A stretch of DNA of 64,000 nucleotides from Candidatus Omnitrophota bacterium (GTDB taxonomy: Bacteria > Omnitrophota > Gorgyraeia > JABMRN01 > RBG-13-46-9), in assembly GCA_016782425.1 (NCBI GenBank), contig JADHYN010000002.1, forward strand, positions 40,807 through 104,806, in the 5' to 3' direction. The notes under the pieces were generated by a model, which was not told the origin of the DNA, searched no databases, and worked only from the letters and a program-made list of their open reading frames with translations. This document shows positions 30,210 through 45,985 of this stretch, piece after piece; within the stretch, counting starts at the first letter, position 1; each line of letters opens with the position of its first letter. The position numbers and the translations under genes were made by a program.

Positions 30210-31580
30210 TTATTTCTTATTACTATTTAAGATTTTCCCTTTTTCGTAGGCAAGTAGGAAAGCGCTTACAACGATGGGATCGAATTGTGTGCCTGAAGAT
30301 GCCTGAATTTCCTGGATGGCAGCATCTGTCATCTGCCGGTGGCGATAGGACCTGTTTGTCGTAATGGCATCGAAAGCATCGCACACGGCTATAATTCTTG
30401 CTATAAGCGGTATTTGGCCTCCTTTTAATCCTTCCGGATACCCTTTTCCGTCATAGCGTTCCTGGTGATATCTAATTTCCCGGGCCACGCTGCCTAATTC
30501 CTTAATGGGGGTAAGAATGGCCGCGCCTATGGCGGGGTGTTCTTTTATTTTCACATATTCTTTCTTTGTAAGTCTGGTCTTTTTACTTAATATGGCGTCT
30601 GGAATACCGATTTTACCGACATCATGTAGAAGTGCCGATATATGTAGCGTTTCCTTAAAATTCTTATACGCCAGGGCCTCCGGAATCCCTTCTAATTCGC
30701 TTGCCGCAGCCAGGCAATATCCTGTTACCCTCTCAGTATGGCCGTGTGTATAGGGGTCTCTTGCGTCTATCGCTGTTGCCAGTGCAATAGCGGTATGCAT
30801 AAAAACGCGGTGTTCCTTGTTGTATAACTCTTTAATCTCCTCGATCCGCTCTTGTAAGCTTTGAATGAGCTGAGCATTGGCAATGGCCATAGAGGCATCG
30901 TTGGCCAATGTCATGAAAAATCCTATCTCTTGTCTTGTAAACTTTTGTTTTGAGATTTTATCGCCTAAAACGAGAATGCCTATTAAACCTTTTTTGTAAT
31001 AAAGCGGTATGCACATATTCGCTTTTAAAATGTCCATCTGCCTCAGAACAAGCTCTATTAAACCGGCCAGATCCTTGTGCTTTTCAAGTGATTCTTTATT
31101 TTTCAAAAGAGCGGCAATCTCCTCGCTAACTAATACCCCGTTTTCGGAAAGTACATAGTTTTTTCTTTCGTCAAACATTTTAATTAAAGGATTCTCAAAC
31201 GTCATTCTGATAAAACCAACCGGGATCTTCGTGCCACCTTCACCCTTGCTATCAATTAAAATAAAAGCATTTTTGTCTTCTTTATACAAAAGAACCGCTG
31301 TGTGGGTAATCCCGAGCTGTTCATCAATAATGTTAACTATCATTTTTATCAGGTGCTCGGGTTTCTTAAAACGGATCATAAGCCTTGAGGCATTTTCCAG
31401 AAACACCTGATAATCCTTTTCCGCCTTTGGCCATTTTTGCACGTTTTCGGCGCCCATGGGTATCAGCGCGCCTTCTGTATCGGTTAATTTATCCAGCATC
31501 CACTGCTGAATCTTAAACCAGCCTTTGTGGTCGATTTTATTCTTAATAAGATCTCTATGCATTTTTCCCCTCTTTTGCAT
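30210..31580 (-). CDS. GAF domain plus HD-GYP phosphodiesterase (c-di-GMP hydrolase family)
   Basis: HDVGKIGIP (HD) and HQERYDGKGYPEGL (GYP); central GAF-like region. Confidence 0.85.
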   Translation of the reverse strand: MQKRGKMHRDLIKNKIDHKGWFKIQQWMLDKLTDTEGALIPMGAENVQKWPKAEKDYQVFLENASRLMIRFKKPEHLIKMIVNIIDEQLGITHTAVLLYKEDKNAFILIDSKGEGGTKIPVGFIRMTFENPLIKMFDERKNYVLSENGVLVSEEIAALLKNKESLEKHKDLAGLIELVLRQMDILKANMCIPLYYKKGLIGILVLGDKISKQKFTRQEIGFFMTLANDASMAIANAQLIQSLQERIEEIKELYNKEHRVFMHTAIALATAIDARDPYTHGHTERVTGYCLAAASELEGIPEALAYKNFKETLHISALLHDVGKIGIPDAILSKKTRLTKKEYVKIKEHPAIGAAILTPIKELGSVAREIRYHQERYDGKGYPEGLKGGQIPLIARIIAVCDAFDAITTNRSYRHRQMTDAAIQEIQASSGTQFDPIVVSAFLLAYEKGKILNSNKK

Positions 31581-31926
31581 ATGACATGACTATTGATTCT
31601 AAGTTTTCCAGTACAAGTGGCTTCGTAATATATTCAAGGGCTCCTATTTTACGCGCGGTATCCATTTTATCCTGGTCTTCGATAGCGGTTACCATTATCA
31701 CTTTCGCTTTTTTATTAACGCCTTTCATTTTTCTTAGTGTTTCGATGCCGTCCATTTCCTTCATTCTAACATCCAAGAGCACTATGTGCGGTTTTTCTCT
31801 TTTGAATATTCTTAAGCCCTCGGATCCGTTTAGTGCCGTAAAAACCTGGAAGTTTCTTTCTTCGAAAAAACTCCTTACAAAATCGCAAACGTCTATTTCA
31901 TCGTCAACAACAAGGATTTTTGTCAT
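31555..31926 (-). CDS. receiver-only response regulator
   Basis: ILVVDDE, LLDVRMKEMDG, ITKPL; 123 aa. Confidence 0.85.
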   Translation of the reverse strand: MTKILVVDDEIDVCDFVRSFFEERNFQVFTALNGSEGLRIFKREKPHIVLLDVRMKEMDGIETLRKMKGVNKKAKVIMVTAIEDQDKMDTARKIGALEYITKPLVLENLESIVMSYAKEGKNA

Positions 31927-32297
31927 AAATCCTCCTTAAGAGATTTTCCGGAATACGCCTTGCTTATAACGTCCTCTAATACCTTTAAAGAATTAAGCGG
32001 TTTGTCCAGATAAGCGTAAGCGCCGGCATTTAACATACGGGCTTTTGTCTTTCCTGCGTCATCGAACGCCGTTACAAAAATCACTTTTGTCTTTGGCTGT
32101 TTGGATTTCAGCAAACCTAATATTTCGTCACCGCTTATTCCTGGCATCTTAAGATCCAATATGGCAATATCCGGATTTTTATTATTGATTAATTCGATAC
32201 CTTGCACTGCTTTGGAGGCAACGTGTATTTCATACCCTCGCAATTCAAAATACTCCTTTAACATCTCGATGAACTCAAGTTCATCGTCTACGGCCAC
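31923..32297 (-). CDS. receiver-only response regulator (start uncertain; GTG at 32297 clips strand beta-1)
   Basis: ILDLKMPGISG, VTAF, LDKPL. The frame stays open upstream (..IIEKKPRIVAVDDE) but has no ATG/GTG/TTG there. Confidence 0.7.
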   Translation of the reverse strand: MAVDDELEFIEMLKEYFELRGYEIHVASKAVQGIELINNKNPDIAILDLKMPGISGDEILGLLKSKQPKTKVIFVTAFDDAGKTKARMLNAGAYAYLDKPLNSLKVLEDVISKAYSGKSLKEDL

Positions 32298-32333: not shown

Positions 32334-32368
32334 AGTTTTAAGTAATAAGTTTTAAGTTCTAAGTTTTT
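32334..32368. repeat. heptamer array AGTTTTA AGTAATA AGTTTTA AGTTCTA AGTTTTT
   Basis: Read directly; overlaps the last codons and the stop of the four-helix-bundle gene. Confidence 0.85.
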
Positions 32369-32705
32369 TGGAAAAAGAATAAAGCATTCTACTTATTTCT
32401 TTTCCATTAACTATATGTTTTTCAGTTTCTTTTATATTTATCAATTTTAATCTTGCGGATAAATCTAATGCTGTTAATACCTCATTAACAGATCTATAGG
32501 CATAAGATATAAACTGTAAAAACTCTTTATTGCTTGACGTTCCGGCACCTTCAGCTATATTAAGAGGGATTGAAATAACTGCTCTTTTGATTTGAGATGT
32601 TAAATTATATATTTCCGTGGTCGGTAAACTTTTAGACATTTTATAAATATCCTCGCAGTACTCCATGGCTTTCTTATATATCTGTAATTTTCGATAATCT
32701 TGCAT
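32352..32705 (-). CDS. four-helix-bundle protein (23S rRNA intervening-sequence protein / Avd-like family)
   Basis: LTSQIKRAVISIPLNIAEG core typical of this family; 117 aa; no SD upstream. Confidence 0.8.
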   Translation of the reverse strand: MQDYRKLQIYKKAMEYCEDIYKMSKSLPTTEIYNLTSQIKRAVISIPLNIAEGAGTSSNKEFLQFISYAYRSVNEVLTALDLSARLKLINIKETEKHIVNGKEISRMLYSFSKKLRT

Positions 32706-32719
32706 AATCTAAACAATAA

Positions 32720-32754
32720 CTTATAACTTACAACTTAAAACTTATAACTATTTA
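32720..32754. repeat. heptamer array CTTATAA CTTACAA CTTAAAA CTTATAA CTATTTA (inverted relative to 32334-32368)
   Basis: Read directly. Its reverse complement is (AAGTTNT)n, the same unit as the left array. It overlaps the stop of the upstream kinase gene. Confidence 0.85.
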
Positions 32755-34893
32755 CGCGCTTACTTTTTTGGCAGAGGCTGGGAATTCGAGCGTAAACACC
32801 GTTCCGTCGCCTACTTTGCTTTTAACGGATATTTTGCCGCCATTTTTTTCCACAACCTGGCGAACGATAAAAAGGCCAAGCCCCGTTCCTTTGCCCGGTT
32901 CTTTTGTCGTATAGAATGGATTGAATATCTGCCCGAGTTTATCTTCGGGTATTCCATGACCTGTATCTTCGATGTCTATGAAAACTTTACCGCCTGTTTC
33001 TCTTGCTTTTATTACGATCCTTCCTCTTTCTTTTATCGCTTGTGCGGCATTTCGTAGCAAATTGAAAAATATCTCCTGAAGCTGTTTCTTATCGCCGGAG
33101 ATAAGCGATAAATTCTCGCCTATTTCTTTTATGATATCGATTTTATCCAGTTTTAACTCATAACCAACTAACGCTAAAACTTCGTCTATTTCTTCCTTTA
33201 TATCTATATCGTGAGAGACCAGCCCTTTTGATGGTTTCGCAAAACTGGAAAGCCTTTTTGTTATAGCTGTTGCCCTGTCGGTTTCATGTATGACCTTTTC
33301 CATGATCTTTTGTGCTTTTTCGAGAAGTTCATCAGGGGTCTTGTTCTTATATAACCCGTCTTTCATGTTCAATATAAACACTTCGCACTGTCCTCTTGCG
33401 ATCCCCAAGGGATTGCATATTTCGTGATTTATTCCGGCTGAAAGCGTTCCTATGACTGCCATTTTTTCCCTTTGCGCGGCTTCTGCCTGCGTTTTCCCTA
33501 ATTCTTCAAACATTTCGGCGTTGCTTAACGCTATAGCAAGCGTTCTCGCTAATGGCAACAGTATGTCCATATCATCCTGGGTATACTCCTCATCAGATTT
33601 TTTCTTGCCGAGAGTAAGAATGCCCATCATCCCCCCTTGCGATGTTGCAAGCGGTATTGCGAGTTCCAGTTTTAAACGATTCATGTCCTCTATAATTTTT
33701 TCCGGCATCTTGTATTCTTTTATGTGCGCACTTACTGAAAGGCACGTTTTTGTTCTCGCAAGAAATGACGCAAGGGTGTTATCTATTTTTAACACCATAT
33801 TCTTCTCTTTTATTCCCTGTGAAGCCATTAAATTATATTCGTTTTTATCTTCATTTAGAAGGAAAACTCCGCAACTCTGGAGTTTTATAATGTCTGAGAG
33901 TTTGTTTACCGTTAATTTTACAAGCCTGTTTAAATCTAAAACTGTTAATACCTCGCTTGTAAATGTCTTGAGCAATTCTTTGTAATCGTATTTCTTCTGA
34001 AAGAGGTATTTGTCAGTTACGTTTATAAGGAAATTTTCGATTTTTCTTAATGAGAAGATAATTAGTATACTACTTAATATAAGACCTGCTACTCTATCGC
34101 CAAGGCCAGCGCTTTGTGATATGAATTCTTGAATAACTAATGTAGGTAATACAAGCATCGCGGATACCGCTGCTAAAAGACCCGCAAACACAAGGGTCTT
34201 CTTGATAATAACTTCTATGTCCATCAATTGATGGCGAACGATGGCATAACCCATTAATAGAGGATAAAAAAATACGCCAAAATTGCCAAATGGATATATA
34301 TAAACACCAAAACATGGCAAAAAACATAAAAAGCCCCCGCCCCAACCGAGTGCAGCTCCAATGAAAAAGTACGTTATCTGCATTCGTTTCCTCATGTCAT
34401 GAGTTTTCCTATACGCAGCATACAACTCATAGTGACTATAAATTATCAATCCATATATTGAAGCAAATATAAACAAATATAATAAAGGTCCGGGCGGGTT
34501 GACCCAATAAAATTGTGAGAACAAAAACTTTACATTTCCAATAAATAGGTTCTTACTAAATAGGTCATAAAAAAGAAATATAAAACAGGATATATAACTA
34601 AGTATAATTAGTAATCTGCGTTTAATATCCAAAAAAGTACAAACAAAATGTAAAAATAAAGTAGGCAAGAAAATAATTCCTATATATGTTAACTGCCACC
34701 ATAAAAATGCATCATTTGGATTATCATGGATAGTAGATAGTTTTAATCCTCCAAAAGCCCATATCGCGACCCCTAAACTATATGCTGTCCATATATTATT
34801 GAGTTTCTTGCCCTGGCCTTTAATAGCAAGAAATATTGCCATTGATAGACTAGACAGCCCCACCAGTAAACTTGATAAACCAAAAGCATTCAT
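32752..34893 (-). CDS. sensor histidine kinase: 7TM-type N domain, GAF, HisKA, HATPase
   Basis: The N-terminal helices share the AIVRHQLMDIEVIIKK block with the other two kinases. H-box SAGINHEICNPL; GTGLGLFIV. Confidence 0.85.
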   Translation of the reverse strand: MNAFGLSSLLVGLSSLSMAIFLAIKGQGKKLNNIWTAYSLGVAIWAFGGLKLSTIHDNPNDAFLWWQLTYIGIIFLPTLFLHFVCTFLDIKRRLLIILSYISCFIFLFYDLFSKNLFIGNVKFLFSQFYWVNPPGPLLYLFIFASIYGLIIYSHYELYAAYRKTHDMRKRMQITYFFIGAALGWGGGFLCFLPCFGVYIYPFGNFGVFFYPLLMGYAIVRHQLMDIEVIIKKTLVFAGLLAAVSAMLVLPTLVIQEFISQSAGLGDRVAGLILSSILIIFSLRKIENFLINVTDKYLFQKKYDYKELLKTFTSEVLTVLDLNRLVKLTVNKLSDIIKLQSCGVFLLNEDKNEYNLMASQGIKEKNMVLKIDNTLASFLARTKTCLSVSAHIKEYKMPEKIIEDMNRLKLELAIPLATSQGGMMGILTLGKKKSDEEYTQDDMDILLPLARTLAIALSNAEMFEELGKTQAEAAQREKMAVIGTLSAGINHEICNPLGIARGQCEVFILNMKDGLYKNKTPDELLEKAQKIMEKVIHETDRATAITKRLSSFAKPSKGLVSHDIDIKEEIDEVLALVGYELKLDKIDIIKEIGENLSLISGDKKQLQEIFFNLLRNAAQAIKERGRIVIKARETGGKVFIDIEDTGHGIPEDKLGQIFNPFYTTKEPGKGTGLGLFIVRQVVEKNGGKISVKSKVGDGTVFTLEFPASAKKVSA

Positions 34894-35037
34894 AATTATA
34901 TTTTATCCTTTTTCCAGTTATAATCCTTTAATAAAGTAATCCAAAATCTTGGCAATTAATATTCCAATCTTAATATTATTCTAAAGTTGGCTTCAACATT
35001 CTTCAATTGTATACTATTCCATAGAATGTAATTGAGT

Positions 35038-36474
35038 CTAATAGAATTTTTTATTCTTTAGAATTAATTTTGCAGCTCTCCTGCCAGAATACGCCACTGA
35101 AGTTATGCCCCCTTGTCCCAAACCGCTAGTTGACCAATGTCCGGCTAAATATAATCCTTGTACGTCAGTCTCTTTTGGCACTAAAAAGTTAGCTATTTGA
35201 TTTACCGTGGACGCCCATCCATACATTGCACCTTGTCGATTTAGCGTATATTTATTAAAATCAAGGGGCGTTGCTATTGCTTTCACTTCTATAAAATCCG
35301 AAAGATTAGGTATCAATTTTTCAGCTTTTCTAATCATTTTTCTATATATTATTTCTTTATATTTTTTCCAGAATTTTTCATTATGAAACGGCGCACATAC
35401 ATATATCTGCATTGTGCTCTTATTTTTAGGAGATAAACTAGAATCGTGTAATGAAGGAAAAGTACATACTATATAATCAAGCTCTGGTTTTAATATGTTA
35501 ACTGCATAATGTTCATAACAACTGTCTATATTCCATGTATTAAAATACCAAATGGCACAATGGTCTTTTAGAATCTTTTTTAAATCAACTTTTAATCCCA
35601 AAAATACCGCAAAAACAGATGGAGATACCTCCATATTGTTTACTTTTTTCAAAAATTTTTTCTCTTTTATGTCTAATAAATTATTAAATGTATGGGTTGC
35701 ATCTGCATTTGAAACAACAAATTTCGACATTATAATCTCTCCATTTTCTAATCCTATGCCTTGAATGCGTTTATTTTCTGTTATTATCCTTGTAACTTTT
35801 TCTGATAATCTTACACTGCCTCCATAATCATTAAATCTTTGCCCCAAAGAATCGGCAAAGACTTGCGTTCCACCTTTTGGATAATAACCTCCATCTAAAA
35901 TATATTCCCTATATAAAGTGATACCAGTAATAGCGGACAGTCTCGCTGCCGGCAAACCCATATTCCCTAAAAGCACACTTAAACTTGCTATCAATTTTTT
36001 GTCATTAAAATATTGATTAAGAAGATGTTTAAAAGTCTTTTTTTTAGTTTTGGAATATATATGAAGAAAATTCTTTTTTAAAATAAAAGTAAAAAAATTT
36101 TCGATGTTTTCTTTTTCATGTGGAAATTTTTTTTTGATTTCCATTATAGTGTTTCTTCGGTCTTTTCTGATATAAATAACTTTATTTGGTAATACGATTT
36201 TATCGCATGGATCTATTTGTACAAATTCAAAATACTTCTTTAAATTATGTTCTGTAATAAGTCTTCCTATTTCACCACCGTTTCTGCCTCCACCTATATA
36301 ATGAACAGCAACATCGAAAGTAAAACCATTTCTAGTAAAAGACGAACAATATCCTCCCAGTTTATTATGCTGCTCTACAATCAAAACTCTCATTCCTGCT
36401 TTCGCCAAATAGCAACCACAAACCAACCCCCCTATCCCTGCCCCGATTATTACAACATCATATTTAGTATCCAT
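35038..36474 (-). CDS. FAD-dependent oxidoreductase of the phytoene-desaturase (CrtI-like) family
   Basis: YDVVIIGAGIGGL dinucleotide fold followed by VLIVEQHNKLGGY; 478 aa. Confidence 0.75.
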   Translation of the reverse strand: MDTKYDVVIIGAGIGGLVCGCYLAKAGMRVLIVEQHNKLGGYCSSFTRNGFTFDVAVHYIGGGRNGGEIGRLITEHNLKKYFEFVQIDPCDKIVLPNKVIYIRKDRRNTIMEIKKKFPHEKENIENFFTFILKKNFLHIYSKTKKKTFKHLLNQYFNDKKLIASLSVLLGNMGLPAARLSAITGITLYREYILDGGYYPKGGTQVFADSLGQRFNDYGGSVRLSEKVTRIITENKRIQGIGLENGEIIMSKFVVSNADATHTFNNLLDIKEKKFLKKVNNMEVSPSVFAVFLGLKVDLKKILKDHCAIWYFNTWNIDSCYEHYAVNILKPELDYIVCTFPSLHDSSLSPKNKSTMQIYVCAPFHNEKFWKKYKEIIYRKMIRKAEKLIPNLSDFIEVKAIATPLDFNKYTLNRQGAMYGWASTVNQIANFLVPKETDVQGLYLAGHWSTSGLGQGGITSVAYSGRRAAKLILKNKKFY

Positions 36475-36480
36475 ATCAGT

Positions 36481-37074
36481 CTATATATAATCTACTGTGT
36501 CGGAAATTGGTTTTCTCGGTGAACGTTTACCCTTTTCTGCTGAATAACCAAACGTCAAAATTGCTATCAATTCATTATTGGTATTAAAAATTTTGTTAAT
36601 TTCATTTTTGCAGAACAAGGGGGTATCAAGCCAACAAGAACTAATTCCTAAATCTTCCGCAACGAGTATCATATTTTGAATTGCTGCTGAAATTGCAGAA
36701 AGCTGGGCTGCCTTAATTATTCGCGCAAATTTTGAATAAATTAGTTTGAATTTTTCCTTTAATTTTTCTAAATCTTTTGAATTGTAAACAACAATTATAA
36801 ATGGGGCCTTATCGATTATATTTGCTGCTGAAGATAACATGATATTAATCGCTATACCTGTTTTTTTAGACTTTTTAAGAAGCTCAGTAATTTGCTTTAT
36901 TCTTTTTTTCTCTGTCACAACAACAAATTTCCAAGGTTGTATCTTTAGAAAACTGGGTACTGATGGGCCCCAAATTCCTGCCTCTACAATTTTATCAATT
37001 ATTTCTTTTGGAATTGGCTTATCTTTATATTTTCTTATAGTTTTTCTGTCTTTAATTAAGCTAAAAATATCCAT
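36481..37074 (-). CDS. nitroreductase family protein
   Basis: DRKTIRKYKDKPIP N-terminal motif and 197-aa length typical of the family. Confidence 0.7.
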   Translation of the reverse strand: MDIFSLIKDRKTIRKYKDKPIPKEIIDKIVEAGIWGPSVPSFLKIQPWKFVVVTEKKRIKQITELLKKSKKTGIAINIMLSSAANIIDKAPFIIVVYNSKDLEKLKEKFKLIYSKFARIIKAAQLSAISAAIQNMILVAEDLGISSCWLDTPLFCKNEINKIFNTNNELIAILTFGYSAEKGKRSPRKPISDTVDYI

Positions 37075-37081
37075 CTTGTTA

Positions 37082-38356
37082 TTATTCTATTGTTTTCCCA
37101 AACCACTTCGCTAAAGCAACCAAAGTTAACATCGGAGGTATGCCAGGTGCATATGGTAAAACGCTTGCATCGCAGATAAAGAGATTTTTTATTTGCGTTT
37201 CTAACCTATTATTAACTACCTTTCCAATTGCCGCTGTTCCACCCGGATGAGCACCGCGGGGTTTCGTTATAAGTATACTTTTGGGATCGACGCCACATTT
37301 TATAAGAATTTCCTTAGCGATATCGCTACCCTTCTTTAATTTTTCCAGATCATCAGGGGTGGGGTCTTTTTCAATTCTGCCATCTTTACGAACTTTGCCA
37401 ATATTATCATCCCTTATCTTGGTCATAATTCCTAACATCTTATTAAGCTTAAATATTTTCCAGATATATTTTGCTTCTACGCTGGGAAAAAATCCTACAA
37501 TATTATCAACGAATGGCGATAGAATAAATCCCCCTTCTTGATGATACCTATCACATACCACTGCCATTGCTACTTCTTTCGTTTGATTAAAGCCTTCTCT
37601 AAATCCATAAGTTACATTGAACAAATCTACAAACAAATTTTCTCCTGCTTCAATCCCGGAATTCTGTAAAATAATAGGTGTTCCGATTCCCCCTGCACAA
37701 AGAATAGTTTTGTCCGCAAAAAAAGTCTTTTTCATAAAATTCGATTTGCTTCCTTCGATGCCTATGGCTTCCCTATCAGAAACCAAAACTTTTTTAACAG
37801 AAAACCTGGGGACTATATCGACCCTTTCTTTATCTATATCCTTTAGAAGTTCTACTGCAGTCCATTTTGCTCCGTATTTACATCCTAAGGCACAACCCCC
37901 GCAGGAATTACATCTGTTAATTGCGCCAAATTTTGGCATGATACGCGTTTTATGGCCCAACTTATTTGCCGTCATCATGATCTCGGTGGAAGCCTTGCCA
38001 ATAGGGAAGTCCTCTGCATTGACAGAACATTCTTTTTTTGCCAAATTCAGTTCTTCTTTGAGGTCAATTCCAATTTTATCCATCCCTTCTTCGGAGGGCT
38101 CCACCGCGTTGCCGCAACTTACAATACTTGTGCCTCCTACACCAAAAACTCTATAAATCAAAGTCCCCTGAACGCTTCTTGCAAGAGCAAATCTGTCATA
38201 AAATAATGCCGCGTATGCAATGTTACCTAAAGATTTTACGAAATTTCCTTTTTCCACTATAAGGACTTTCTTATTATTTTTGCAAAGCTCCTTTGCAAGG
38301 GCTAACCCGCTTAAACCCGCTCCTACAAGTATGTAATCATATTTCCTTTGCATCAA
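37082..38356 (-). CDS. GMC-like FAD oxidoreductase
   Basis: YDYILVGAGLSGLALA...VLIVEKG, a Cys-rich CNSCGGCALGCKYGAKW block, and C-terminal GAHPGGTAAIG...ICDASVLP. Confidence 0.7.
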   Translation of the reverse strand: MMQRKYDYILVGAGLSGLALAKELCKNNKKVLIVEKGNFVKSLGNIAYAALFYDRFALARSVQGTLIYRVFGVGGTSIVSCGNAVEPSEEGMDKIGIDLKEELNLAKKECSVNAEDFPIGKASTEIMMTANKLGHKTRIMPKFGAINRCNSCGGCALGCKYGAKWTAVELLKDIDKERVDIVPRFSVKKVLVSDREAIGIEGSKSNFMKKTFFADKTILCAGGIGTPIILQNSGIEAGENLFVDLFNVTYGFREGFNQTKEVAMAVVCDRYHQEGGFILSPFVDNIVGFFPSVEAKYIWKIFKLNKMLGIMTKIRDDNIGKVRKDGRIEKDPTPDDLEKLKKGSDIAKEILIKCGVDPKSILITKPRGAHPGGTAAIGKVVNNRLETQIKNLFICDASVLPYAPGIPPMLTLVALAKWFGKTIE

Positions 38357-39447
38357 GTGCCTATTTTACTCATATATTTATCTATCAAGAAATATTGTAG
38401 GATTTTTGAAAAAACCTGGGCATTACACTCAGGCATAACAAAACCGTAATTTTCCAGAATTTCAGTTGTATATCGAGAGTCCAGTTTTGCATTGGAATTC
38501 AAAGCAAAAATGCTGTTTTGCAATATCGCTCTTTGCGCGGGTGTACACTTGTTTATATTAAAGTTATTCAAGGAAACTATTTTTGGTTTTTTGAATTCCA
38601 TTATTTCGCTGGCTGATTCTATGATATCTGACATCGAAACCTGTCCTTCAGGAAATGGGTGATAATTTTTATTCTTTTCTTTCGTATGCAAAGAAATGAT
38701 ATATATCCCAAATGCAACACTATCTACCGGAACAAGGTTTATATGGGTATCCAAAAGTGGCAACGCATCGAAAATACCCACTTTACAAAGATCGATAAAA
38801 TTATATATATTTCTAGATTGAAGAATTTTGCCGGTTGTCGATTCTCCAATAACTAAAGACGGCCTGAATACATCTATCCAAAGCCCGCCTTTTCGATATT
38901 TCGCAACCAATTTTTCTCCCTCAAATTTGCTTTGTTCATAAGAGGTATTAAATTTCTGTCCTACGTCTAAATCTTTTTCATTAAATCTTTTCCTGCAATC
39001 GCCACAGACATAGGCGGTACTAAAATAGTTTATTTTCTTGAGTTTTCCTTTTTTCTGATATTCACAAGCCAGATCCAAGACATTCCTTGTTCCGCCCACG
39101 TTCACCTTTTTTATTTCTTTGAGCGGCCAATTTACATCAGTAACTGCAGCACTGTGAAATATTTCATCTATTTCGTTCTTTAGTAAATCTCTTGATTTTT
39201 TATTAAAACTCAGATTTTTTTTTGTTATATCACCTTCAAGGATTATTAAATTATCGAGTTTACCGGATATATTTTTATTGCCCCAAAAATTGAGAACACC
39301 TATTACTCTATCTCTGGCTTTTTTACCATTTTTACTTCTGGAAAGTACATAGACTTTGTGTCCCTTTTGTAAAAAAATTTTTACCAGATAGGAACCGATC
39401 AACCCTGTCGCGCCGGTTAGAAATATGGTATTCTTATTTTCGCCCAT
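38353..39447 (-). CDS. thioester-reductase-type SDR (NAD_binding_4 / fatty acyl reductase-like)
   Basis: TGATGLIGSYL Rossmann motif; catalytic YEQSK (YxxxK); 364 aa. Confidence 0.75.
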   Translation of the reverse strand: MGENKNTIFLTGATGLIGSYLVKIFLQKGHKVYVLSRSKNGKKARDRVIGVLNFWGNKNISGKLDNLIILEGDITKKNLSFNKKSRDLLKNEIDEIFHSAAVTDVNWPLKEIKKVNVGGTRNVLDLACEYQKKGKLKKINYFSTAYVCGDCRKRFNEKDLDVGQKFNTSYEQSKFEGEKLVAKYRKGGLWIDVFRPSLVIGESTTGKILQSRNIYNFIDLCKVGIFDALPLLDTHINLVPVDSVAFGIYIISLHTKEKNKNYHPFPEGQVSMSDIIESASEIMEFKKPKIVSLNNFNINKCTPAQRAILQNSIFALNSNAKLDSRYTTEILENYGFVMPECNAQVFSKILQYFLIDKYMSKIGT

Positions 39448-40682
39448 TATTGGTCTTCTCTAATTTTGTTAGCGGGTTTTCCAAAAGCAGTGCAGGCATT
39501 ATTGCCTCCAAAAGCAAAACTGTTATTTAAAACAGTGTTCAATTTCACTTTTCTGGCTTTATTCGGAACGCAATCTATATCGCATTCGGGATCCGGAGTT
39601 TCAAAATTTATTGTTGGCGGAATTATTCCTTCCTTTATGGCTAAACAGCAAGATAGGGCTTCAATAGCGCTTGCTGCTCCCATTGTATGGCCTAACATTG
39701 ATTTTATTGAACTTACAGGAGGAAGTTTCTTGGAGCTATTGCCAAAAACCTCTTTAATTGCCTGACATTCCGTTTTATCATTCGGGATTGTGCCGGTTCC
39801 GTGGGCGCTTATGTAATCAACATCATTTGGTTTAATGCCTGCATTTTTCATTGTTTTTATCATAACCTTTTTGATTCCTTTAAGACTGGGAATGGTCATA
39901 TGGTAGGCATCGCAACTTAATCCATATCCTAAAATTTCAGCGTAAATATTTGCACCTCTTTTCCTTGCAGATTCTAATTCTTCCAGGATTAAAACCGCTG
40001 CTCCTTCGCCAACCATCATTCCTTTTCTATCTTTATCAAACGGCTTGCATAAATTTGGCGACATAGCATACAAACGACCGAAACCCGTAAATCCTATTCT
40101 TGAAAATGGGTCTGATCCGCCTATCAAAGCGCAATTAACCATCTTTTCTCTGATTAAATCATAGCCGTATCCTACGGAATAATTTCCTGCTGCACAGGCC
40201 GTGGGTATTACAACACTCATACCTTTTAATTTAAAAAATCGATTAACATTATTTGATATTGCGCTGCTTTGATATTTTGAAACAGTGATAGCCCATACAT
40301 CGTCTTCACCTAATGCCGCCCAATGCCTATCAATCTCTTCAATCATACCTCCTTCACCCATCGTCGTTCCGAATATTACAGCAATTTTATTTTTGGATAA
40401 TTGAGATGTCTTTAATCCGGTGTCGTTTAATGCCTCCTTTGTCGCCGCCACAGCAAATTGGGATGCCCGTCCAAAATCTCGCAGTCTACTTTTTGGAATA
40501 AAATTTATTGGATCAAAATTTTTTATCTCACCGCCCCTCTGAATATCATAATTTGAGATATCAAACGCAGTTACCTTGCTTATTCCTGATTTTCCATCTA
40601 TAAGATTTTTCCAGAATTCATCTTTACCAATTCCAATGGATGACACAATTCCTAATCCGGTTACAACAACACGTCTTTTCAT
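39447..40682 (-). CDS. beta-ketoacyl-ACP synthase (FabF/KS-alpha type, catalytically complete)
   Basis: Cys in PTACAAGN, His in SAHGTGT, His in GHTMGAAS. Confidence 0.9.
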   Translation of the reverse strand: MKRRVVVTGLGIVSSIGIGKDEFWKNLIDGKSGISKVTAFDISNYDIQRGGEIKNFDPINFIPKSRLRDFGRASQFAVAATKEALNDTGLKTSQLSKNKIAVIFGTTMGEGGMIEEIDRHWAALGEDDVWAITVSKYQSSAISNNVNRFFKLKGMSVVIPTACAAGNYSVGYGYDLIREKMVNCALIGGSDPFSRIGFTGFGRLYAMSPNLCKPFDKDRKGMMVGEGAAVLILEELESARKRGANIYAEILGYGLSCDAYHMTIPSLKGIKKVMIKTMKNAGIKPNDVDYISAHGTGTIPNDKTECQAIKEVFGNSSKKLPPVSSIKSMLGHTMGAASAIEALSCCLAIKEGIIPPTINFETPDPECDIDCVPNKARKVKLNTVLNNSFAFGGNNACTAFGKPANKIREDQ

Positions 40683-41104
40683 TGTATTGCCTTAAAAGTA
40701 AATTCTCCTTTTGCGACAGTTTTACCGTTAACCGACGCTATTGCATTAATAATCCCGGCATCTTTTGTAATTTTTACCGGTGTAACTTCAACCCTTAACG
40801 TATCACCTGGAACAACAGGTTGAAGAAAACGCGTTTTTATACTTCCTAAATAATATGTTGGGTTTTCTTTTTTATCTTCATCATAAAATAACATCGCTCC
40901 TGTCTGGGCCATTACTTCAGAAATAAGAACGCCCGGCATAATTTTTCTTTCCGGGAAGTGCCCTTGGAAAAAGGGTTCATTTACAGAGACATTTTTTATG
41001 CCGATGGCGCGTTTCCCTTTCTCAAATTCTATAACTCTATCTACCATCAAGAAAGGATAACGCTGATGTAAAGCTTTTTTAATTGTATTTAATCCTAATT
41101 CCAT
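40679..41104 (-). CDS. 3-hydroxyacyl-ACP dehydratase (FabZ-like hot-dog)
   Basis: HFPERKIMPGVLISEVMAQTG motif. Confidence 0.85.
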   Translation of the reverse strand: MELGLNTIKKALHQRYPFLMVDRVIEFEKGKRAIGIKNVSVNEPFFQGHFPERKIMPGVLISEVMAQTGAMLFYDEDKKENPTYYLGSIKTRFLQPVVPGDTLRVEVTPVKITKDAGIINAIASVNGKTVAKGEFTFKAIQ

Positions 41105-41125
41105 AATAAATTCCTATTTAATAAA

Positions 41126-41380
41126 TTATTTATTTACGAGATCTTTTACAAGTTCTAATGTTTGCTTTAAATTCGTTAACTTCATTAGGTTTTCTTCGGG
41201 AATTTTGATTTTATATTTTTTCTCAAGAGATGCCAGGATCTCTAAAGCCATCATTGAGTCCATTCCTAAATCTTCTACAAAATTTGCTTCGGGAGTAATT
41301 TTTTCTGGTTCTACCTCGGCAATTTCTGAAATAACGGATTTAATCTCTTTTTCCAAATTCTGCATATTTATTTTAGGCAT
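41126..41380 (-). CDS. acyl carrier protein
   Basis: 84 aa; LGMDSMMALEI phosphopantetheine-attachment Ser. Confidence 0.85.
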   Translation of the reverse strand: MPKINMQNLEKEIKSVISEIAEVEPEKITPEANFVEDLGMDSMMALEILASLEKKYKIKIPEENLMKLTNLKQTLELVKDLVNK

Positions 41381-41393
41381 GTATCGCTACCTC

Positions 41394-42137
41394 CTACATG
41401 GCCAAGCCGCCATCTATGGTTATTACCTGTCCTGTTATATATTTTGCTTCATCCGAAGCAAGAAATGCCGCAACTTTGGCGACCTCATCTGCTTTACCAA
41501 ATCTATTCAAAGGAATCCTTTTTAATAATTCTTTTCTATAATTTTCTTTTAAACCCTGCACCATATCTGTGTCAATATAACCCGGTGCAATTGCGTTCAC
41601 TCTTACATTGTAAGGTCCAACTTCTTTTGCCAATGCCTTTGTAAGGCCTATAATGCCGGCTTTACTGGCCGAATAATTTACTTGCTTTGGCATGCCTTTT
41701 AAACCAGCCACCGATGTTAGATTTATAATATTTCCGCTTTTCTGCTTCATAAAAGTGACTATAGCCGCTCGTACAAGATTAAACGCTCCTGATAAGTTTG
41801 TAGATATAACATCTTCCCAATCCTGTTCCTCCATGAGCATAAGCGCTTTATCGCGCAGTATGCCGGCATTGTTTACTATTATATCAAGTCTTCCGAAATG
41901 GCTTTTGACGCCCTCAACCATAACTTTTATGGAATCGTATTCTTTTACGTCCTGTCGAAACGTGAGCACCTTACCACCTTTTTCTTCGATTTCTTTTTTT
42001 ACTTTGAGGGCTTTGTCTTCGCTTTTTAGAAAATTAAATGCTACATTTACCCCTTGTCTGGCAAATTCCCGCACAATAGCCTCACCTATGCCGCGCGAAC
42101 CACCTGTTACTATCGCAACCTTATCTTTTAAAAGCAT
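41394..42137 (-). CDS. 3-oxoacyl-ACP reductase (FabG-like SDR)
   Basis: TGGSRGIG, NNAG, YSASKAG. Confidence 0.9.
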   Translation of the reverse strand: MLLKDKVAIVTGGSRGIGEAIVREFARQGVNVAFNFLKSEDKALKVKKEIEEKGGKVLTFRQDVKEYDSIKVMVEGVKSHFGRLDIIVNNAGILRDKALMLMEEQDWEDVISTNLSGAFNLVRAAIVTFMKQKSGNIINLTSVAGLKGMPKQVNYSASKAGIIGLTKALAKEVGPYNVRVNAIAPGYIDTDMVQGLKENYRKELLKRIPLNRFGKADEVAKVAAFLASDEAKYITGQVITIDGGLAM

Positions 42138-43379
42138 TTATAGTTTCCCTATCGTCAGACTCGAATTGTTCCCTGTAGGACTAAAAGAATTTACTAAAAT
42201 ATTATTGATCTCCTGTTCCCTTGTCTTATTAGGTACACAGTCAAGATCGCATCTTCTATCCAGTTTTTTGTAATTTACCGTTGGAGGAAGGAAGTTCTCC
42301 TCCATAACCCCTATGCTAGCTCCCAGGTTCATCGCGCCTGATGCGGAAAAACTATCGCCAATCATCGACTTGATAGAGCTTATCGGGATCTTTTTCGCCT
42401 TTTTTCCAAATACATTTTTAACGGCTCTTGTTTCCATAACGTCGCAGTCAAGTGTGGAATTCGCACTTGCGCTTATATAAGCGATATCGCCTTCCTTGAG
42501 ACCCATATCTTCCAAGCAATATTTAATTGACTCCGTAGCGCCTTTTGCTTTCGGGCTATATATGTTTTTGCTCTCGGGGTCAAACGAAGTGCCATAGCCG
42601 AGAACTTCCGCGTAGACTTTAGCGTCTCTTGCGCGAGCGTGCTCTAGCTCTTCCAGAACAACTATACAAGCACCTTCACCCATTACTATGCCGTTTCGCC
42701 GCTTATCAAAGGGGCAATCGATTTCCTCTTTCCCCGGTCTGGAGCCGGCTAAGTGCCCGATCTTGTGAAATCCTTTATATGTCTGTTCGCAAAGCTCTTC
42801 AACGCCGCCTGTTAAAACAACTTTATATTCATATAGGTTTATCATGTTCATCGCATAATAGATAGCGTCTAAACTTGAACAAAACCCTGTAGCGATGGTG
42901 CTATTAAATCCTTGTATATTAAACTTAATTGAAATATGGCTTGCGGGTGAATTTATAACGGTATTTGGGAAAAGCGCCGGATTTACAGCCCTTGGTCCTT
43001 CACGAAGTGCCTCTTTATCAAATTCGCTTATTGAGCGTACGCTACCCATTGTAGAACCAAGGGATACGCCACATATATCCGTATCCTTCTCAGGAACAGG
43101 ACAAGGTAATTTTGCATCTTCCAAGGCCAATTTTGAGGCACACAAAACCAATAATGTTGTCCTATCTAAATTACGTAATCCTTTTTGGCCCAAAATCGTC
43201 TTTGGGTTAAAATTCGATATCTCACCGGCAAGTTTTGTCCTAAGGTTAGAAGTGTCAAAAAGTGTAACCGGCTTTACTCCTGAAGCGCCTTTTTTCAATG
43301 CACTCCAGAATTCATGCTTCCCAATCCCATTGGGCGCCAGAACTCCTATGCCGGTTATAACTATTCTTTTTTTCATCAT
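42138..43379 (-). CDS. ketosynthase-like partner protein (chain-length-factor-like; both catalytic His residues replaced)
   Basis: KS fold. Cys is kept (ATGFCSS), but the His positions read SASANST and SMIGDSFSASG. Start moved to ATGATG at 43379 (MMKKRIVITGIG), removing a 37-aa extension. Confidence 0.8.
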   Translation of the reverse strand: MMKKRIVITGIGVLAPNGIGKHEFWSALKKGASGVKPVTLFDTSNLRTKLAGEISNFNPKTILGQKGLRNLDRTTLLVLCASKLALEDAKLPCPVPEKDTDICGVSLGSTMGSVRSISEFDKEALREGPRAVNPALFPNTVINSPASHISIKFNIQGFNSTIATGFCSSLDAIYYAMNMINLYEYKVVLTGGVEELCEQTYKGFHKIGHLAGSRPGKEEIDCPFDKRRNGIVMGEGACIVVLEELEHARARDAKVYAEVLGYGTSFDPESKNIYSPKAKGATESIKYCLEDMGLKEGDIAYISASANSTLDCDVMETRAVKNVFGKKAKKIPISSIKSMIGDSFSASGAMNLGASIGVMEENFLPPTVNYKKLDRRCDLDCVPNKTREQEINNILVNSFSPTGNNSSLTIGKL

Positions 43380-43413
43380 TAAAAATCCTTCAAAAAAAAT
43401 ATACCTATGACAA

Positions 43414-43617
43414 TCAGCGATTGTTTGAGTTCTCTTTACCCGCAATCCATTTATCAATAGTTGACTTCTTGAATCGCCACGCAGAGCCAACCTTGAAACC
43501 GGGTACTTTGCCTTCTTGAGCGTGCTTGTATATCGTAACCTTCTTCATTCTCAAGTACTTAGCAAGCTCATCGATCGTCATTAGGCTGAATTTGCTTTTG
43601 TCGGTCATTTTAGACAC
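43414..43617 (-). CDS. small excisionase-family (MerR-superfamily) HTH DNA-binding protein
   Basis: MTIDELAKYLRMKKVTIYKHAQEGKVPGFKVGSAWRFKKSTIDKWI; 67 aa. Confidence 0.7.
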   Translation of the reverse strand: MSKMTDKSKFSLMTIDELAKYLRMKKVTIYKHAQEGKVPGFKVGSAWRFKKSTIDKWIAGKENSNNR

Positions 43618-43705
43618 CTCTTCTTATTATTACTAGTTAATACTTATTGTTATTTCGTAATATATTATATTACAAAGTGGTATAAAGAAATATGGGGTGC
43701 TATTA

Positions 43706-43733
43706 AGTATAATGACGAAATCGGATTTGTCAA
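43706..43733 (-). promoter_or_regulatory. sigma70-type promoter TTGACA-N16-TATACT for the HTH/lipid operon
   Basis: Read on the minus strand, about 85 nt upstream of the HTH ATG. Confidence 0.6.
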
Positions 43734-43741
43734 GCGGGGGC

Positions 43742-43771
43742 AAAAAAATAGCCCCATCTGTTAGTGGGGCC
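43742..43771 (-). terminator. intrinsic terminator after the GGDEF gene
   Basis: The minus strand reads GCCCCA-ctaacaga-TGGGGC followed by TATTTTTTTG. Confidence 0.7.
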
Positions 43772-43800
43772 TGTTAAATTTCTATCTAAACTCTCTTACC

Positions 43801-44682
43801 TTACCTTAATATATAGCAATTACCCCCTTTTGATTTCGCTTCATATAGTGCTTCGTCAGCGCGTTTTAGCAGGTAATTCATTTCCACCTTCTTTATATCT
43901 TTGACCTCTATTACACCCATGCTAATTGAAGTATTAATCTTGTTCTTCTCAAATATAATCGGCTTTTTCATGGCCTTTTGCAGCCTTTCCGCCGCAACAA
44001 GGGCCTCTTCCTTTCTTTTATGTGAGAGCATAACCATGAATTCATCCCCGCCAAAGCGGCCTATCAGGTCTATTTTACGCGTTTGGCGTTTTAGTCTTTC
44101 TGCAAATTCGCGTATGACCTTATCGCCTGCGAGATGCCCCAAGGTATCGTTTATTTCTTTAAAATTATCTATATCCATTAAAATAAATGTTAACGGTATA
44201 TTATTACGAAGTGATTTTTCAAGCTCTTCTTCTGCCTTTTTTAAAAAATAACCTTTATTAAAAGTACCTGTCATCCAGTCAAATGTCGCTTCGTCCTTTA
44301 ATTTATCGTGCTTTTCCTTTAATTCTAGAAAATTCTTTATTCGGGCGGTGAGTTCATCGGGAGATACCGGTTTTACGAGATAATCAACCGCTCCGCCGTG
44401 GAGCGCCCTTAACTTATCGTCTATCTTAATGCTTGCAGTAAGAAATATGACGGGAATATATCTTTCTCCGAAATAAGTCCTTATCTTATCCAGGACCTCA
44501 AAGCCCGTCATCCCCGGCATAGAAACATCCAGAATAATGAGATTCGGTGATTCCTTCTTAAAAATCTCGATTGCCTCCATGCCATTTTTTGCTGCTACAA
44601 CCTCATAACCTTCCGATAATAGTATTGTCTTGAGAACTTCTAAAATGCTTGAATCATCATCGCAAACTAGAATCTTGATCAT
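43801..44682 (-). CDS. response regulator-diguanylate cyclase (REC-GGDEF)
   Basis: ILVCDDD, LDVSMPGMTG, and GGDEF in RFGGDEFMV with an RxxD I-site (RKID) five residues upstream. Confidence 0.9.
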   Translation of the reverse strand: MIKILVCDDDSSILEVLKTILLSEGYEVVAAKNGMEAIEIFKKESPNLIILDVSMPGMTGFEVLDKIRTYFGERYIPVIFLTASIKIDDKLRALHGGAVDYLVKPVSPDELTARIKNFLELKEKHDKLKDEATFDWMTGTFNKGYFLKKAEEELEKSLRNNIPLTFILMDIDNFKEINDTLGHLAGDKVIREFAERLKRQTRKIDLIGRFGGDEFMVMLSHKRKEEALVAAERLQKAMKKPIIFEKNKINTSISMGVIEVKDIKKVEMNYLLKRADEALYEAKSKGGNCYILR

Positions 44683-44759
44683 TTTCCACCTCTAAGCCTA
44701 ATATTTTATTATAGGTGATATTACCTGCTGCCATTCTATACAATATTAACATATTTAAA

Positions 44760-45803
44760 TCATACCTGCAAATCGTATTCAACGCTCATTAAATCTTCTT
44801 CGGCTTCCTTTGTTTTTCCCATTTTCTCCAATATCTGAGCCCGTTGTCCCCGTAAATACGGCATATACGGATTATCCTTATCTTTACTAATTATACCCGT
44901 AATATACAGATACGCATCTTCATACCTTTTTTGGTCTTTAAGCAATATTGCACGATAATACTCAACCCGGCGAATAACAGATAAACTACGGGAATTCATA
45001 ATAACGTCCTTATATAGCTTTTCACTCTTTTTATAATAGCCGAGAAGATGGTATGTTCGGGCTTTTGTCATCTTGAATTCATAGATATCTTTCATTTCGG
45101 GCTTGATCTTATTAAGATATCTTTCATTAATTATATATACAATGGGGCGAATTAACCTCAATGGTATAAATCTTAAAAAATCAAACCTCACCCCTTCTTT
45201 CGTTATTACATATGTAGGTAAATTGCAGTATACGGCCAAATAAGAAGGGTCAGCCCATCTTTTTTCGTATTCTGCTCTCAGCTTAACCCTCTTATTATCG
45301 GCAATAATGCTTAAATCTTCTTTTATGTCGGACTGAGTGGCAAAATTGCCGTTTTTATTCACAAGATCAAGCTTGTAAGCCGGGTCTACAATTATCCATT
45401 TCTTATCAGGCGCGAGAACCTCTGCTATAGAATGCGGTGAGGCACCTGATGCTGATTGAAGAAATAGAAGCCTTGAGGTTATTCCGATACTCCTGGCCAA
45501 TTGCATAAATACACGTGCCTGCTGGTCACACCATCCAATACCGTAAATCAGCTTCTCGATAGCGCAAGTAGCCAGCCTATTATGATAGCCGTGGATGGAA
45601 AGGACATTTTCATGGACGAAATCCCTGATAGCAACCACCTTATCGTAAAAATTTTCCGATTTATCGGTAAGGCTTCTGGTAATAACGTAAGACATAATCT
45701 TGTTGTACCTTTTTTCAGAAATTGAGGAAAAAAATAGGAAATAAGAAGGGGCGGTTAGTAAAATAATAATTATTATAAGAAAAATAAAACCCTTTTTTTT
45801 CAT
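44760..45803 (-). CDS. membrane-anchored transglutaminase-like protein with C-terminal TPR repeats
   Basis: GWCDQQARVF (Cys), PHSIAEV (His), IIVDP (Asp) core and TPR-like YY..A repeats. Start set at ATG 45803 (MKKKGFIFLIII) with AGGAG 7 nt upstream, rather than 45950. Confidence 0.6.
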   Translation of the reverse strand: MKKKGFIFLIIIIILLTAPSYFLFFSSISEKRYNKIMSYVITRSLTDKSENFYDKVVAIRDFVHENVLSIHGYHNRLATCAIEKLIYGIGWCDQQARVFMQLARSIGITSRLLFLQSASGASPHSIAEVLAPDKKWIIVDPAYKLDLVNKNGNFATQSDIKEDLSIIADNKRVKLRAEYEKRWADPSYLAVYCNLPTYVITKEGVRFDFLRFIPLRLIRPIVYIINERYLNKIKPEMKDIYEFKMTKARTYHLLGYYKKSEKLYKDVIMNSRSLSVIRRVEYYRAILLKDQKRYEDAYLYITGIISKDKDNPYMPYLRGQRAQILEKMGKTKEAEEDLMSVEYDLQV

Positions 45804-45985
45804 AGGATTACTCCTGTATGGGAGATATTGTAGCATTTTTTGGAGTAAATTCCACTTTTTTATTATTACATATATCCTTTCGCCGCACGTTCGGACCGGT
45901 TTCCTGTCTAAATAAGCCAATTCAACAAAGTAATTTAAAAAATCCACCATTTAGGGTATAATCTCAATAACATAAGGATTTTCGC

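Follow-up and report, generated by a model that had tools for sequence, protein, structure and literature searches.

A 64,000-nt stretch of contig JADHYN010000002.1 from a Candidatus Omnitrophota bacterium, hereafter the window, carries at positions 35038-43617 ten minus-strand open reading frames (ORFs) for discrete enzymes of the fatty acid synthase/polyketide synthase (FAS/PKS) kind. A first-pass annotation, made from the sequence alone, had described them as an orphan type II lipid operon in which a ketosynthase (KS) and a KS-like partner are combined with a ketoreductase (KR), an acyl carrier protein (ACP) and a dehydratase (DH), followed by a thioester reductase (TR) and three redox enzymes. 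Domain assignment with Pfam and NCBIfam agrees with this description for the coordinates and domains of all ten genes (Table 1), which overlap or are spaced by 1-37 bp according to the ORF coordinates. The operon is not a complete orphan, since five of the ten genes, those for the ACP, DH, KS, dead KS partner and a CrtI-like flavoprotein, are orthologous to the ladderane candidate Cluster I of anammox bacteria; the first-pass annotation had named ladderane clusters solely for comparison.

Ketosynthase pair and associated enzymes

The view that this is a system of discrete FAS/PKS-like enzymes with a KS and a KS-like partner is upheld by the active site residues: the KS has an intact Cys/His/His triad, whereas the partner has Phe/Ser/Asp at the corresponding positions. 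As an intact KS is thus accompanied by a catalytically dead homolog, the two are considered a KS/chain-length-factor (CLF) pair. The ORF of the partner spans 42138-43490 with a TTG start at 43490; the ATG at 43376 is the probable start because homologs have about 412 aa, and from there the gene does not overlap with the preceding HTH gene. Among 119 Omnitrophota orthologs of the partner, Phe occupies the Cys position in all (119/119) and is followed by Cys in 117, the first His position is taken by Ser, Thr, Ala, Gly or Cys and the second by Glu, Asp or, once, Asn. Homologs of the partner form more than 120 sequence clusters with 71-99% identity, and the named ones stem from metagenome-assembled genomes (MAGs) of Candidatus Omnitrophota. 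The CrtI-like flavoprotein shows 100% identity to a protein from an Omnitrophica MAG.

The best solved structure for the partner is 9s5h_C with 400 bits, as compared to 263 bits for the best FabF and 147 bits for the actinorhodin KSβ/CLF 1tqy_B. Those for the KS are 9s5h_B (462 bits), Iga11 (6kxd_A, 362 bits) and FabF (315 bits). With a score of 428.7 the KS fails the FabF equivalog cut-off of 493.75 and passes the NF005589 subfamily cut-off of 387.

The unit has, as predicted, its own KR and DH, both of which pass their family cut-offs (Table 1), and a non-housekeeping ACP with a DSM motif, which scores 62.2 against the housekeeping ACP cut-off of 70.45. Among solved structures the ACP matches 7qv0_D, 7auf_A and 9s5i_E best; these three are taken to be anammox-specific ACPs on the basis of the sequence match and a recent preprint rather than the entry titles. 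The DH keeps the HFP motif and the Glu in ISEVMAQ; its best PDB match 8ayd is taken to be an anammox FabZ (amxFabZ), ordinary FabZs scoring almost equally. The window ORFs that were submitted to Pfam or NCBIfam scans (150 aa or longer) include no FabD, FabH, FabI/K or Acc domain, and there is no recognisable enoyl reductase (ER) in the operon.

A stand-alone, MxaA-like TR and then three flavoproteins complete the set. The TR contains the motifs GxxGxxG (GATGLIG) and YxxxK (YEQSK), its best PDB match is the myxalamid terminal reductase MxaA (4u7w), and the reductase family points to release of the chain as an aldehyde or alcohol. In the GMC-family flavoprotein, residues 158-168 or thereabouts form an insert, CNSCGGCALGC, with the ferredoxin-type spacing CxxCxxCxxxC and a weak Fer4_9 match nearby, which suggests an oxygen-independent Fe-S/flavin dehydrogenase. 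The next protein has a nitroreductase fold, and a domain with this fold reduces a C=C bond in F420 biosynthesis; the CrtI/CrtISO family, to which the last one belongs, includes isomerases and saturases. This CrtI-like protein scores 173 with crtI_fam and 159 with the carotenoid isomerase model. A carotenoid role is unlikely, given that it remains far below every carotenoid equivalog cut-off and that the anammox homolog cannot replace CrtI in vivo (PMC4790861).

Such an enzyme set could be housekeeping FAS II, the only one the organism has, in which an unconventional flavoprotein would serve as ER. FabG- and FabZ-like enzymes that pass NCBIfam equivalog cut-offs, a KS that passes the FabF subfamily cut-off, a core widespread in Omnitrophota (>120 sequence clusters, >=71% identity) and a 64-kb window without other fab genes would all fit. 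The Omnitrophota papers that were searched are silent on FAS. We nevertheless deem it very unlikely. The unit has no FabD, FabH, FabI or Acc, ACP and KS stay under the housekeeping cut-offs (62 vs 70; 429 vs 494), and anammox bacteria have a canonical FabF in addition to the orthologous cluster. The DH is missing in three of the ten Omnitrophota loci compared below, where gene content varies among species, and a terminal TR would divert all chains from phospholipid synthesis. The likeness to canonical FAS II lies in the FabG-, FabZ- and FabF-like enzymes and the ACP; the lack of FabD/FabH/FabI/Acc, the predicted heterodimeric KS with a dead subunit, the DH that some relatives dispense with and the terminal reductase set it apart. 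The first-pass annotation had likewise not considered the unit housekeeping-like.

The same annotation had recognised the logic of polyene-forming systems such as aryl-polyene clusters. The gene content stands, with KS/CLF, KR, DH and ACP but no ER, whereas the polyene product was inference only, and the CrtI-like and nitroreductase enzymes could be reductases. A highly reducing type II PKS similar to those for ishigamide (Iga10-16) or aryl polyenes (ApeO/ApeC), making a conjugated polyene as an envelope-anchored pigment or antioxidant for protection, would share the KS with inactive partner, the discrete KR, DH and ACP, and the absence of an ER. It would also agree with Iga11, the ishigamide KS, being the second-best solved relative of the active KS (362 bits) and with a faint ApeI-like/ApeP-like Pfam match on the DH of a related locus. 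The inactive partner is, however, FabF-like rather than an actinomycete-type CLF, being far nearer to FabF (263 bits) than to the actinorhodin KSβ 1tqy_B (147 bits), the sole actinomycete CLF listed. The DH is, as said, missing in three of ten loci, and polyene formation in known systems does not require a CrtI-like protein, here a constant partner. Aryl-polyene clusters are marked by aryl starter activation, two ACPs, LolA-like/MMPL export and acyl- or glycosyltransferase genes beside KS/CLF. Membership in that class has to be abandoned: the operon and its flanks carry none of these domains, lacking a starter-activating enzyme such as a starter-unit ligase, a second ACP and LolA/MMPL export genes. 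The window differs from ishigamide and aryl-polyene systems furthermore by its reductive release and the absence of amide-forming genes. Omnitrophota live in dark, anoxic habitats, in which a pigment for photoprotection or against oxidants has less obvious benefit. We consider a protective polyene an unlikely product. Cispentacin membership (AmcF, AmcE and AmcB) and flexirubin membership (FlxB) were rejected, since scores are below cut-off.

Comparison with anammox Cluster I

Cluster I of Kuenenia (KustE3603-3608) comprises amxACP, amxFabZ, amxFabF2, amxFabFmut, a phytoene dehydrogenase homolog and a B12 radical SAM protein. Its amxFabF2 and amxFabFmut form a KS/CLF-like heterodimer that decarboxylates malonyl-ACP and whose substrate preference is shaped by Phe135 and Val139 of the CLF and the gate residue Phe394 of the KS (bioRxiv 10.64898/2026.05.19.726425). 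The same 2026 preprint considers Cluster I unique to ladderane producers and the pair the first chain-length factor in a fatty acid pathway. The sequence of 9s5h_C carries the Val/Asn/Glu triad described there for amxFabFmut; since the PDB code does not occur in the preprint text, the link between 9s5h and amxFabF2/amxFabFmut rests on the sequences.

Anammox metagenome loci were fetched with the 9s5h_C sequence as query, and 20 of them have the order ACP-DH-KS-CLF-flavoprotein. Their products are 37-44% (ACP), 42-49% (DH), 48-54% (KS), 47-52% (CLF) and 35-37% (flavoprotein) identical to the window proteins. Between window and anammox, pairwise KS/CLF identity amounts to 49-53% for orthologs (52% for the KS and 49% for the partner with the respective anammox subunit) and 33-36% for paralogs. 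A neighbour-joining tree, which is distance-based and does not include the external references FabF/FabB, Iga12 and Kuste2805, has a KS clade with 100% and a CLF clade with 94% bootstrap, and Omnitrophota and anammox are each monophyletic inside both. This topology fits one old duplication that would be older than both lineages. The positions that match Phe135 and Val139 of amxFabFmut are invariant in 119/119 Omnitrophota CLFs, and the window KS retains the gate Phe (cf. Phe394) in the motif AFGGNN. On a 1.17-Mb metagenome contig (L038:10001-12443), KR and DH genes follow the gene for a triad-less KS with Phe/Asn/Glu, which is 56% identical to the window CLF and branches in the tree as sister to the Omnitrophota CLFs; an active KS and an ACP were not detected within 10 kb.

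Window and Cluster I share five orthologous genes with 36-53% identity, KS and CLF clades mirrored in both phyla, conserved tunnel residues and an ACP that is closer to the anammox-specific than to housekeeping ACPs. The arrangement is different: in the window the CLF gene comes first and the ACP and DH genes lie between the two KS genes. The operon has a FabG of its own plus TR, GMC/Fe-S flavoprotein and nitroreductase, and its dead KS has Phe/Ser/Asp instead of the Val/Asn/Glu of anammox. A sensor kinase/cyclic di-GMP (c-di-GMP) module is joined to the unit in Omnitrophota and absent from the anammox loci. Finally, the host is not an anammox organism. In the anammox locus that is 100% identical to 9s5h_C (L017), a gene with B12-binding and Radical_SAM domains directly follows the flavoprotein gene; the window and the nine other Omnitrophota loci have none.

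Related clusters were noted outside anammox bacteria by Rattray et al. (PMC2649909), and antiSMASH had previously labelled clusters of Omnitrophota MAGs 'ladderane', in a study that did not settle their function (PMC9902471). That Omnitrophota themselves make ladderane or other cyclobutane lipids with this cluster would be in keeping with the antiSMASH label and the five-gene orthology, but because the B12/radical SAM gene is missing, ladderanes are not expected. They have been found in anammox bacteria only. We regard ladderane production here as extremely improbable, and the 'ladderane' label that antiSMASH assigns to clusters outside anammox bacteria should not be equated with ladderane production. 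What is new is the gene-for-gene orthology to a now characterised KS/CLF pair and the consistent absence of the radical SAM gene.

Gene order across Omnitrophota and the sensor kinase module

Ten distinct architectures were compared, namely the window and loci L001, L003, L006, L007, L008, L009, L010, L012 and L054, the last of which was retrieved independently, via the flavoprotein. The contig scan with the dead KS gave 12 loci, a small and partly retrieval-biased sample that is too limited for phylum-wide statistics. All ten have HTH_17, CLF, KR, ACP and KS, with the HTH_17 gene directly upstream of the CLF gene, and the shared order is HTH_17, CLF, KR, ACP, KS, variable tailoring genes, CrtI-like flavoprotein, 7TM kinase. 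The CrtI-like flavoprotein is present in nine loci (absent in L006) and the DH in seven (absent in L003, L009 and L054). A TR, the position of which varies, and a nitroreductase are found in five loci each, methyltransferases (class I, ICMT-type or LuxD-like fusion) in four, an extra KS in two, the GMC flavoprotein in the window only and radical SAM in none (0/10). The LuxD-like protein, an acyltransferase/methyltransferase fusion, is encoded by L003. These counts indicate that the core is conserved and the tailoring species-specific, so the ten genes, initially treated as one entity, resolve into a conserved core with the TR, the nitroreductase and especially the GMC protein as variable accessories.

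Sequence conservation of the core throughout the phylum is strong, with 69-78% identity for the dead KS. In loci retrieved via the dead KS this protein has 72-78% identity as compared to 60-67% for the active KS, whereas the values in L054 are 69% and 67%, so that the dead KS can be called at least as conserved as the active one. One locus labelled 'uncultured Planctomycetia' (L005, CAYVIU010000032.1) shows the same protein identities to the window as JGI contig L001; the label may be a binning or taxonomy error.

A 7TM-GAF kinase gene comes after the last biosynthetic gene in 10/10 loci; the two overlap or are at most some 50 bp apart, except in the window with its 144 bp. The first-pass annotation had ended the unit at 35038, which is not sustained: no terminator-like site is present in the 144-bp gap between the CrtI-like gene (35038) and the kinase gene (34893), and the kinase gene is syntenic in every related locus. 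Where the sequence extends this far, which is the case for the window and four other loci, two receivers and a GAF/HD-GYP protein come next, and HD-GYP orthologs with 56-63% identity hold the same position in L003, L009, L012 and L054. The four-helix-bundle gene between kinase and receivers is not at this position in other Omnitrophota loci; similar 23S_rRNA_IVP genes adjoin related loci L051 and L055. Identity of the kinase with PrsK (XrtA/PEP-CTERM) was rejected, as TIGR02916 scores 149.8 against 300 with a match limited to the GAF and kinase part; the L015 and L053 kinases miss this cut-off too. Two more sensor kinases are encoded directly downstream of the HD-GYP gene, one with HisKA_7TM (28450-30075, -) and one with HisKA and HATPase only (26865-28478, +), and an HTH-cupin regulator is at 25897-26487. 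L054 has a similar set of second HisKA_7TM kinase, receiver and HTH-cupin regulator.

Outside Omnitrophota, a KS is found next to a HisKA_7TM/GAF kinase in 5/5 contexts examined. In a MAG labelled deltaproteobacterium (L015) and in metagenome contigs L050-L052, which carry the same KS family, a FabF-like KS with intact triad lies between an HTH_17 gene and a HisKA_7TM-GAF kinase gene, accompanied by a divergent FadL/TodX porin and often an ICMT/PEMT-type methyltransferase. L053 has the order ICMT-B12 radical SAM-KS-kinase-kinase, with the B12/radical SAM gene in place of HTH_17. The KS-kinase module is located at L015:7818-16700 and at about 4000-13000 in L050, L051, L052 and L053, with sigma54-type regulators after the kinase, and no curated family was found that names it. 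In L055 (10001-13641) a gene for a CrtI-like flavoprotein, 47% identical to that of the window, overlaps a HisKA_7TM-GAF kinase gene by 4 bp while no KS genes occur within 10 kb upstream, hence flavoprotein-kinase pairing can exist without the synthase. Species-specific tailoring, the fusion with the 7TM-kinase/HD-GYP module and the wider KS-kinase association are new as well.

At the other end, a terminator-like hairpin separates the operon from a gene for a receiver-GGDEF diguanylate cyclase, which lacks synteny at other Omnitrophota loci and was not included in the unit, its association being uncertain. The consensus promoter proposed by the first-pass annotation exists as an 11/12 match, the best within 30000-46100. 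Given that such matches are no commoner than in shuffled sequence (58 found, 54 expected), the site is suggestive only.

Table 1. Features at the lipid operon and the adjoining signalling genes, in window coordinates
Feature	Positions	Strand	Evidence and remarks
HTH_17 (excisionase/MerR-type) small DNA-binding protein	43414..43617	-	Pfam/NCBIfam; first gene of the unit
Catalytically inactive KS partner (CLF-like), amxFabFmut ortholog	42138..43376	-	Phe/Ser/Asp at triad positions
FabG-type 3-oxoacyl-ACP reductase (KR)	41394..42137	-	TIGR01830 score 316 vs cut-off 298; TGGSRGIG, YSASK motifs
Dedicated ACP, amxACP-like, DSM motif	41126..41380	-	PP-binding domain
FabZ-type 3-hydroxyacyl-ACP dehydratase (DH)	40679..41104	-	NF000582 score 155 vs cut-off 113
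Active KS, amxFabF2 ortholog	39447..40682	-	Cys163/His294/His332 intact; TACAAG, SAHGTG, GHTMG
Stand-alone NAD_binding_4 thioester reductase (TR)	38353..39447	-	PF07993 E=7e-49; TIGR01746 score 153
Short GMC-family flavoprotein, 424 aa	37082..38356	-	GMC_oxred_N + GMC_oxred_C; nearest NCBIfam the short MftG type, below cut-off
Nitroreductase-fold FMN protein	36481..37074	-	PF00881 E=2e-28
CrtI/CrtISO-family FAD protein	35038..36474	-	Amino_oxidase domain; counterpart of the anammox 'phytoene dehydrogenase homolog'
HisKA_7TM-GAF-HisKA-HATPase sensor histidine kinase	32752..34893	-	Directly downstream of the biosynthetic genes
Four-helix-bundle (23S rRNA IVS-type) protein	32352..32705	-	TIGR02436 score 110; between kinase and receivers
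Single-domain response regulator (receiver only)	31923..32297	-	Translation; syntenic Response_reg genes in L001, L003, L054
Second single-domain response regulator	31555..31926	-	Translation; synteny as for the first receiver
GAF + HD-GYP (HD_5), putative c-di-GMP phosphodiesterase	30210..31580	-	Last gene of the conserved unit
Promoter-like site TTGACA-16-TATACT	43706..43733	-	11/12; 5' of the HTH gene
Terminator-like hairpin + T-run	43750..43771	-	Ends the upstream GGDEF gene; marks the 5' boundary of the unit
Receiver-GGDEF diguanylate cyclase	43801..44682	-	Directly upstream; separate transcription unit

Two genes upstream of the operon and divergently oriented, a gene at 45986-48727 (+) encodes a 913-aa fusion of AMP-dependent ligase and lysophospholipid acyltransferase, with a domain order opposite to that of E. 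coli Aas, which suggests uptake and recycling of exogenous fatty acids. It has no synteny with the cluster at other loci and was rejected as a member. Elsewhere in the window, the scanned ORFs (150 aa or longer) belong to the trp and his operons or a type II secretion/pilus cluster or encode AlaRS, RecA or sensor kinases, and neither tRNA nor Rfam families were found in the 64 kb. GC content is 0.33-0.41 at 24000-46000, the region with the signalling and lipid genes, 0.41-0.47 at 1-22 kb (trp/his/recA part) and 0.40-0.45 beyond 46 kb; composition bias or horizontal acquisition are both possibilities. At the border of the housekeeping and low-GC blocks (22517-23155, -), a gene encodes a protein similar to REP-associated tyrosine transposases that scores below the curated cut-off. 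Omnitrophota have been reported to encode very long proteins: past the right end of the window, after a CBM-domain gene at 62222-63457, lies a giant gene of more than 2172 aa (L048:1-6519), and L054 likewise ends in a gene of 4407 aa.

Proposed product and biological meaning

We propose, with about even confidence, that the unit makes a specialised, reductively released, short-to-medium unsaturated lipid that is coupled to c-di-GMP signalling, and not bulk membrane fatty acid. By analogy with the anammox orthologs, we infer that the active KS and its dead paralog pair as a KS/CLF heterodimer on the dedicated ACP, prime themselves by malonyl-ACP decarboxylation and then elongate, with the FabG-type reductase and the FabZ-type dehydratase processing every round. 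Since there is no canonical ER the chain is expected to stay unsaturated (enoyl or polyenoyl); alternatively, the CrtI/CrtISO-like or the nitroreductase-fold enzyme might reduce or isomerise it. The MxaA-like TR would free the chain from the ACP as an aldehyde or alcohol, forms that the GMC flavoprotein with its Fe-S motif could interconvert without oxygen. Because kinase linkage is phylum-wide and tailoring species-variable, a small released or envelope lipid sensed by the kinase seems most likely; the 7TM kinase would perceive it and feed c-di-GMP signalling. Gene content, catalytic residues, orthology and synteny are observed, whereas heterodimer formation, priming, chain length, degree of unsaturation, release mode and the kinase link are predictions.

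Several points weigh against this proposal. Any product proposed for a member of this family, the anammox cluster included, is hypothetical. Cross-linking of the anammox heterodimer has used saturated C6, C8 and C16 probes only, and in vitro the heterodimer went no further than acetoacetyl-ACP (bioRxiv 10.64898/2026.05.19.726425), hence 'unsaturated, short to medium chain' is an extrapolation. As TR, nitroreductase and GMC protein are absent from at least half of the loci, the release chemistry of the window is not a family property. The kinase link is drawn from conserved gene order only; the gap before the kinase gene is 144 bp in the window versus 0-50 bp elsewhere, the four-helix-bundle gene interrupts the kinase-receiver order and no transcription factor output is encoded with the kinase module. 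Moreover, a malonyl transferase and a phosphopantetheinyl transferase are needed from elsewhere.

The main rival is a structural envelope lipid, in which a special acyl or alkyl chain, for instance an unsaturated fatty alcohol for ether lipids comparable to the anammox ladderane ethers, would be built into the membrane while the 7TM kinase senses membrane state like DesK. This reading draws on the nearest relatives being proposed membrane-lipid genes of anammox bacteria, on the strong conservation of the core over the phylum (dead KS 69-78%), on the PEMT/ICMT-type membrane methyltransferases and FadL-type fatty acid porins in several kinase-linked KS loci, and on the suitability of a polytopic kinase for bilayer sensing. 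Methyltransferases in four loci, among them the LuxD-like fusion in L003, on the other hand, suggest a free acid or methyl ester rather than membrane building blocks. A glycerol-phosphate acyl- or alkyltransferase is not conserved in the unit, the gene at 45986-48727 not being syntenic elsewhere, and the output of the Omnitrophota kinase consists of receiver-only and HD-GYP proteins instead of a transcription factor acting on lipid genes. We find a structural lipid possible but doubtful.

A released lipid that is coupled to signalling, as we propose, has counterparts in known systems. Fatty acid-derived signals are produced beside a sensor kinase by rpfF/rpfC/rpfG of Xanthomonas (diffusible signal factor, DSF), phcBSRQ of Ralstonia (the methyl esters 3-OH-PAME/MAME) and cqsA/cqsS of Vibrio and Legionella. 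As in these systems, the lipid genes of the window adjoin a polytopic histidine kinase and tailoring is species-variable; receivers and an HD-GYP output recall Rpf, and the methyltransferase variants of sister loci recall PhcB. The synthase is different, being a KS/CLF type II system instead of a crotonase, a lone methyltransferase or a PLP enzyme, as is the HisKA_7TM-GAF sensor, and the link between product and kinase is here a prediction from gene order.

A bolder version, which we consider rather improbable, would have a phylum-wide lipid autoinducer, an alcohol or aldehyde here and methyl esters elsewhere, that is read by the co-transcribed 7TM-GAF kinase and switches c-di-GMP behaviour such as attachment, pili or a host-dependent lifestyle. 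The ladderane pathway of anammox bacteria would then be a derived offshoot of the same ancient module, acquired by gain of the B12/radical SAM protein. If this were true, the Omnitrophota product would approximate the long-sought pre-cyclisation intermediate of ladderanes, the biosynthesis of which has remained unsolved since their discovery because anammox bacteria are genetically intractable and expression of Cluster I in E. coli did not lead to ladderanes (PMC4790861). The same five-gene core, widespread in another phylum without the radical SAM gene, amounts to a natural 'minus-cyclase' version. Its product could reveal the output of the KS/CLF-ACP-FabZ-flavoprotein module alone as well as the role of the CrtI-like enzyme. 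The occurrence of lipid genes beside HisKA_7TM-GAF kinases in several lineages points to an uncharacterised lipid-sensor pairing, which in the ultra-small and possibly host-dependent Omnitrophota could control c-di-GMP-dependent lifestyle switches.

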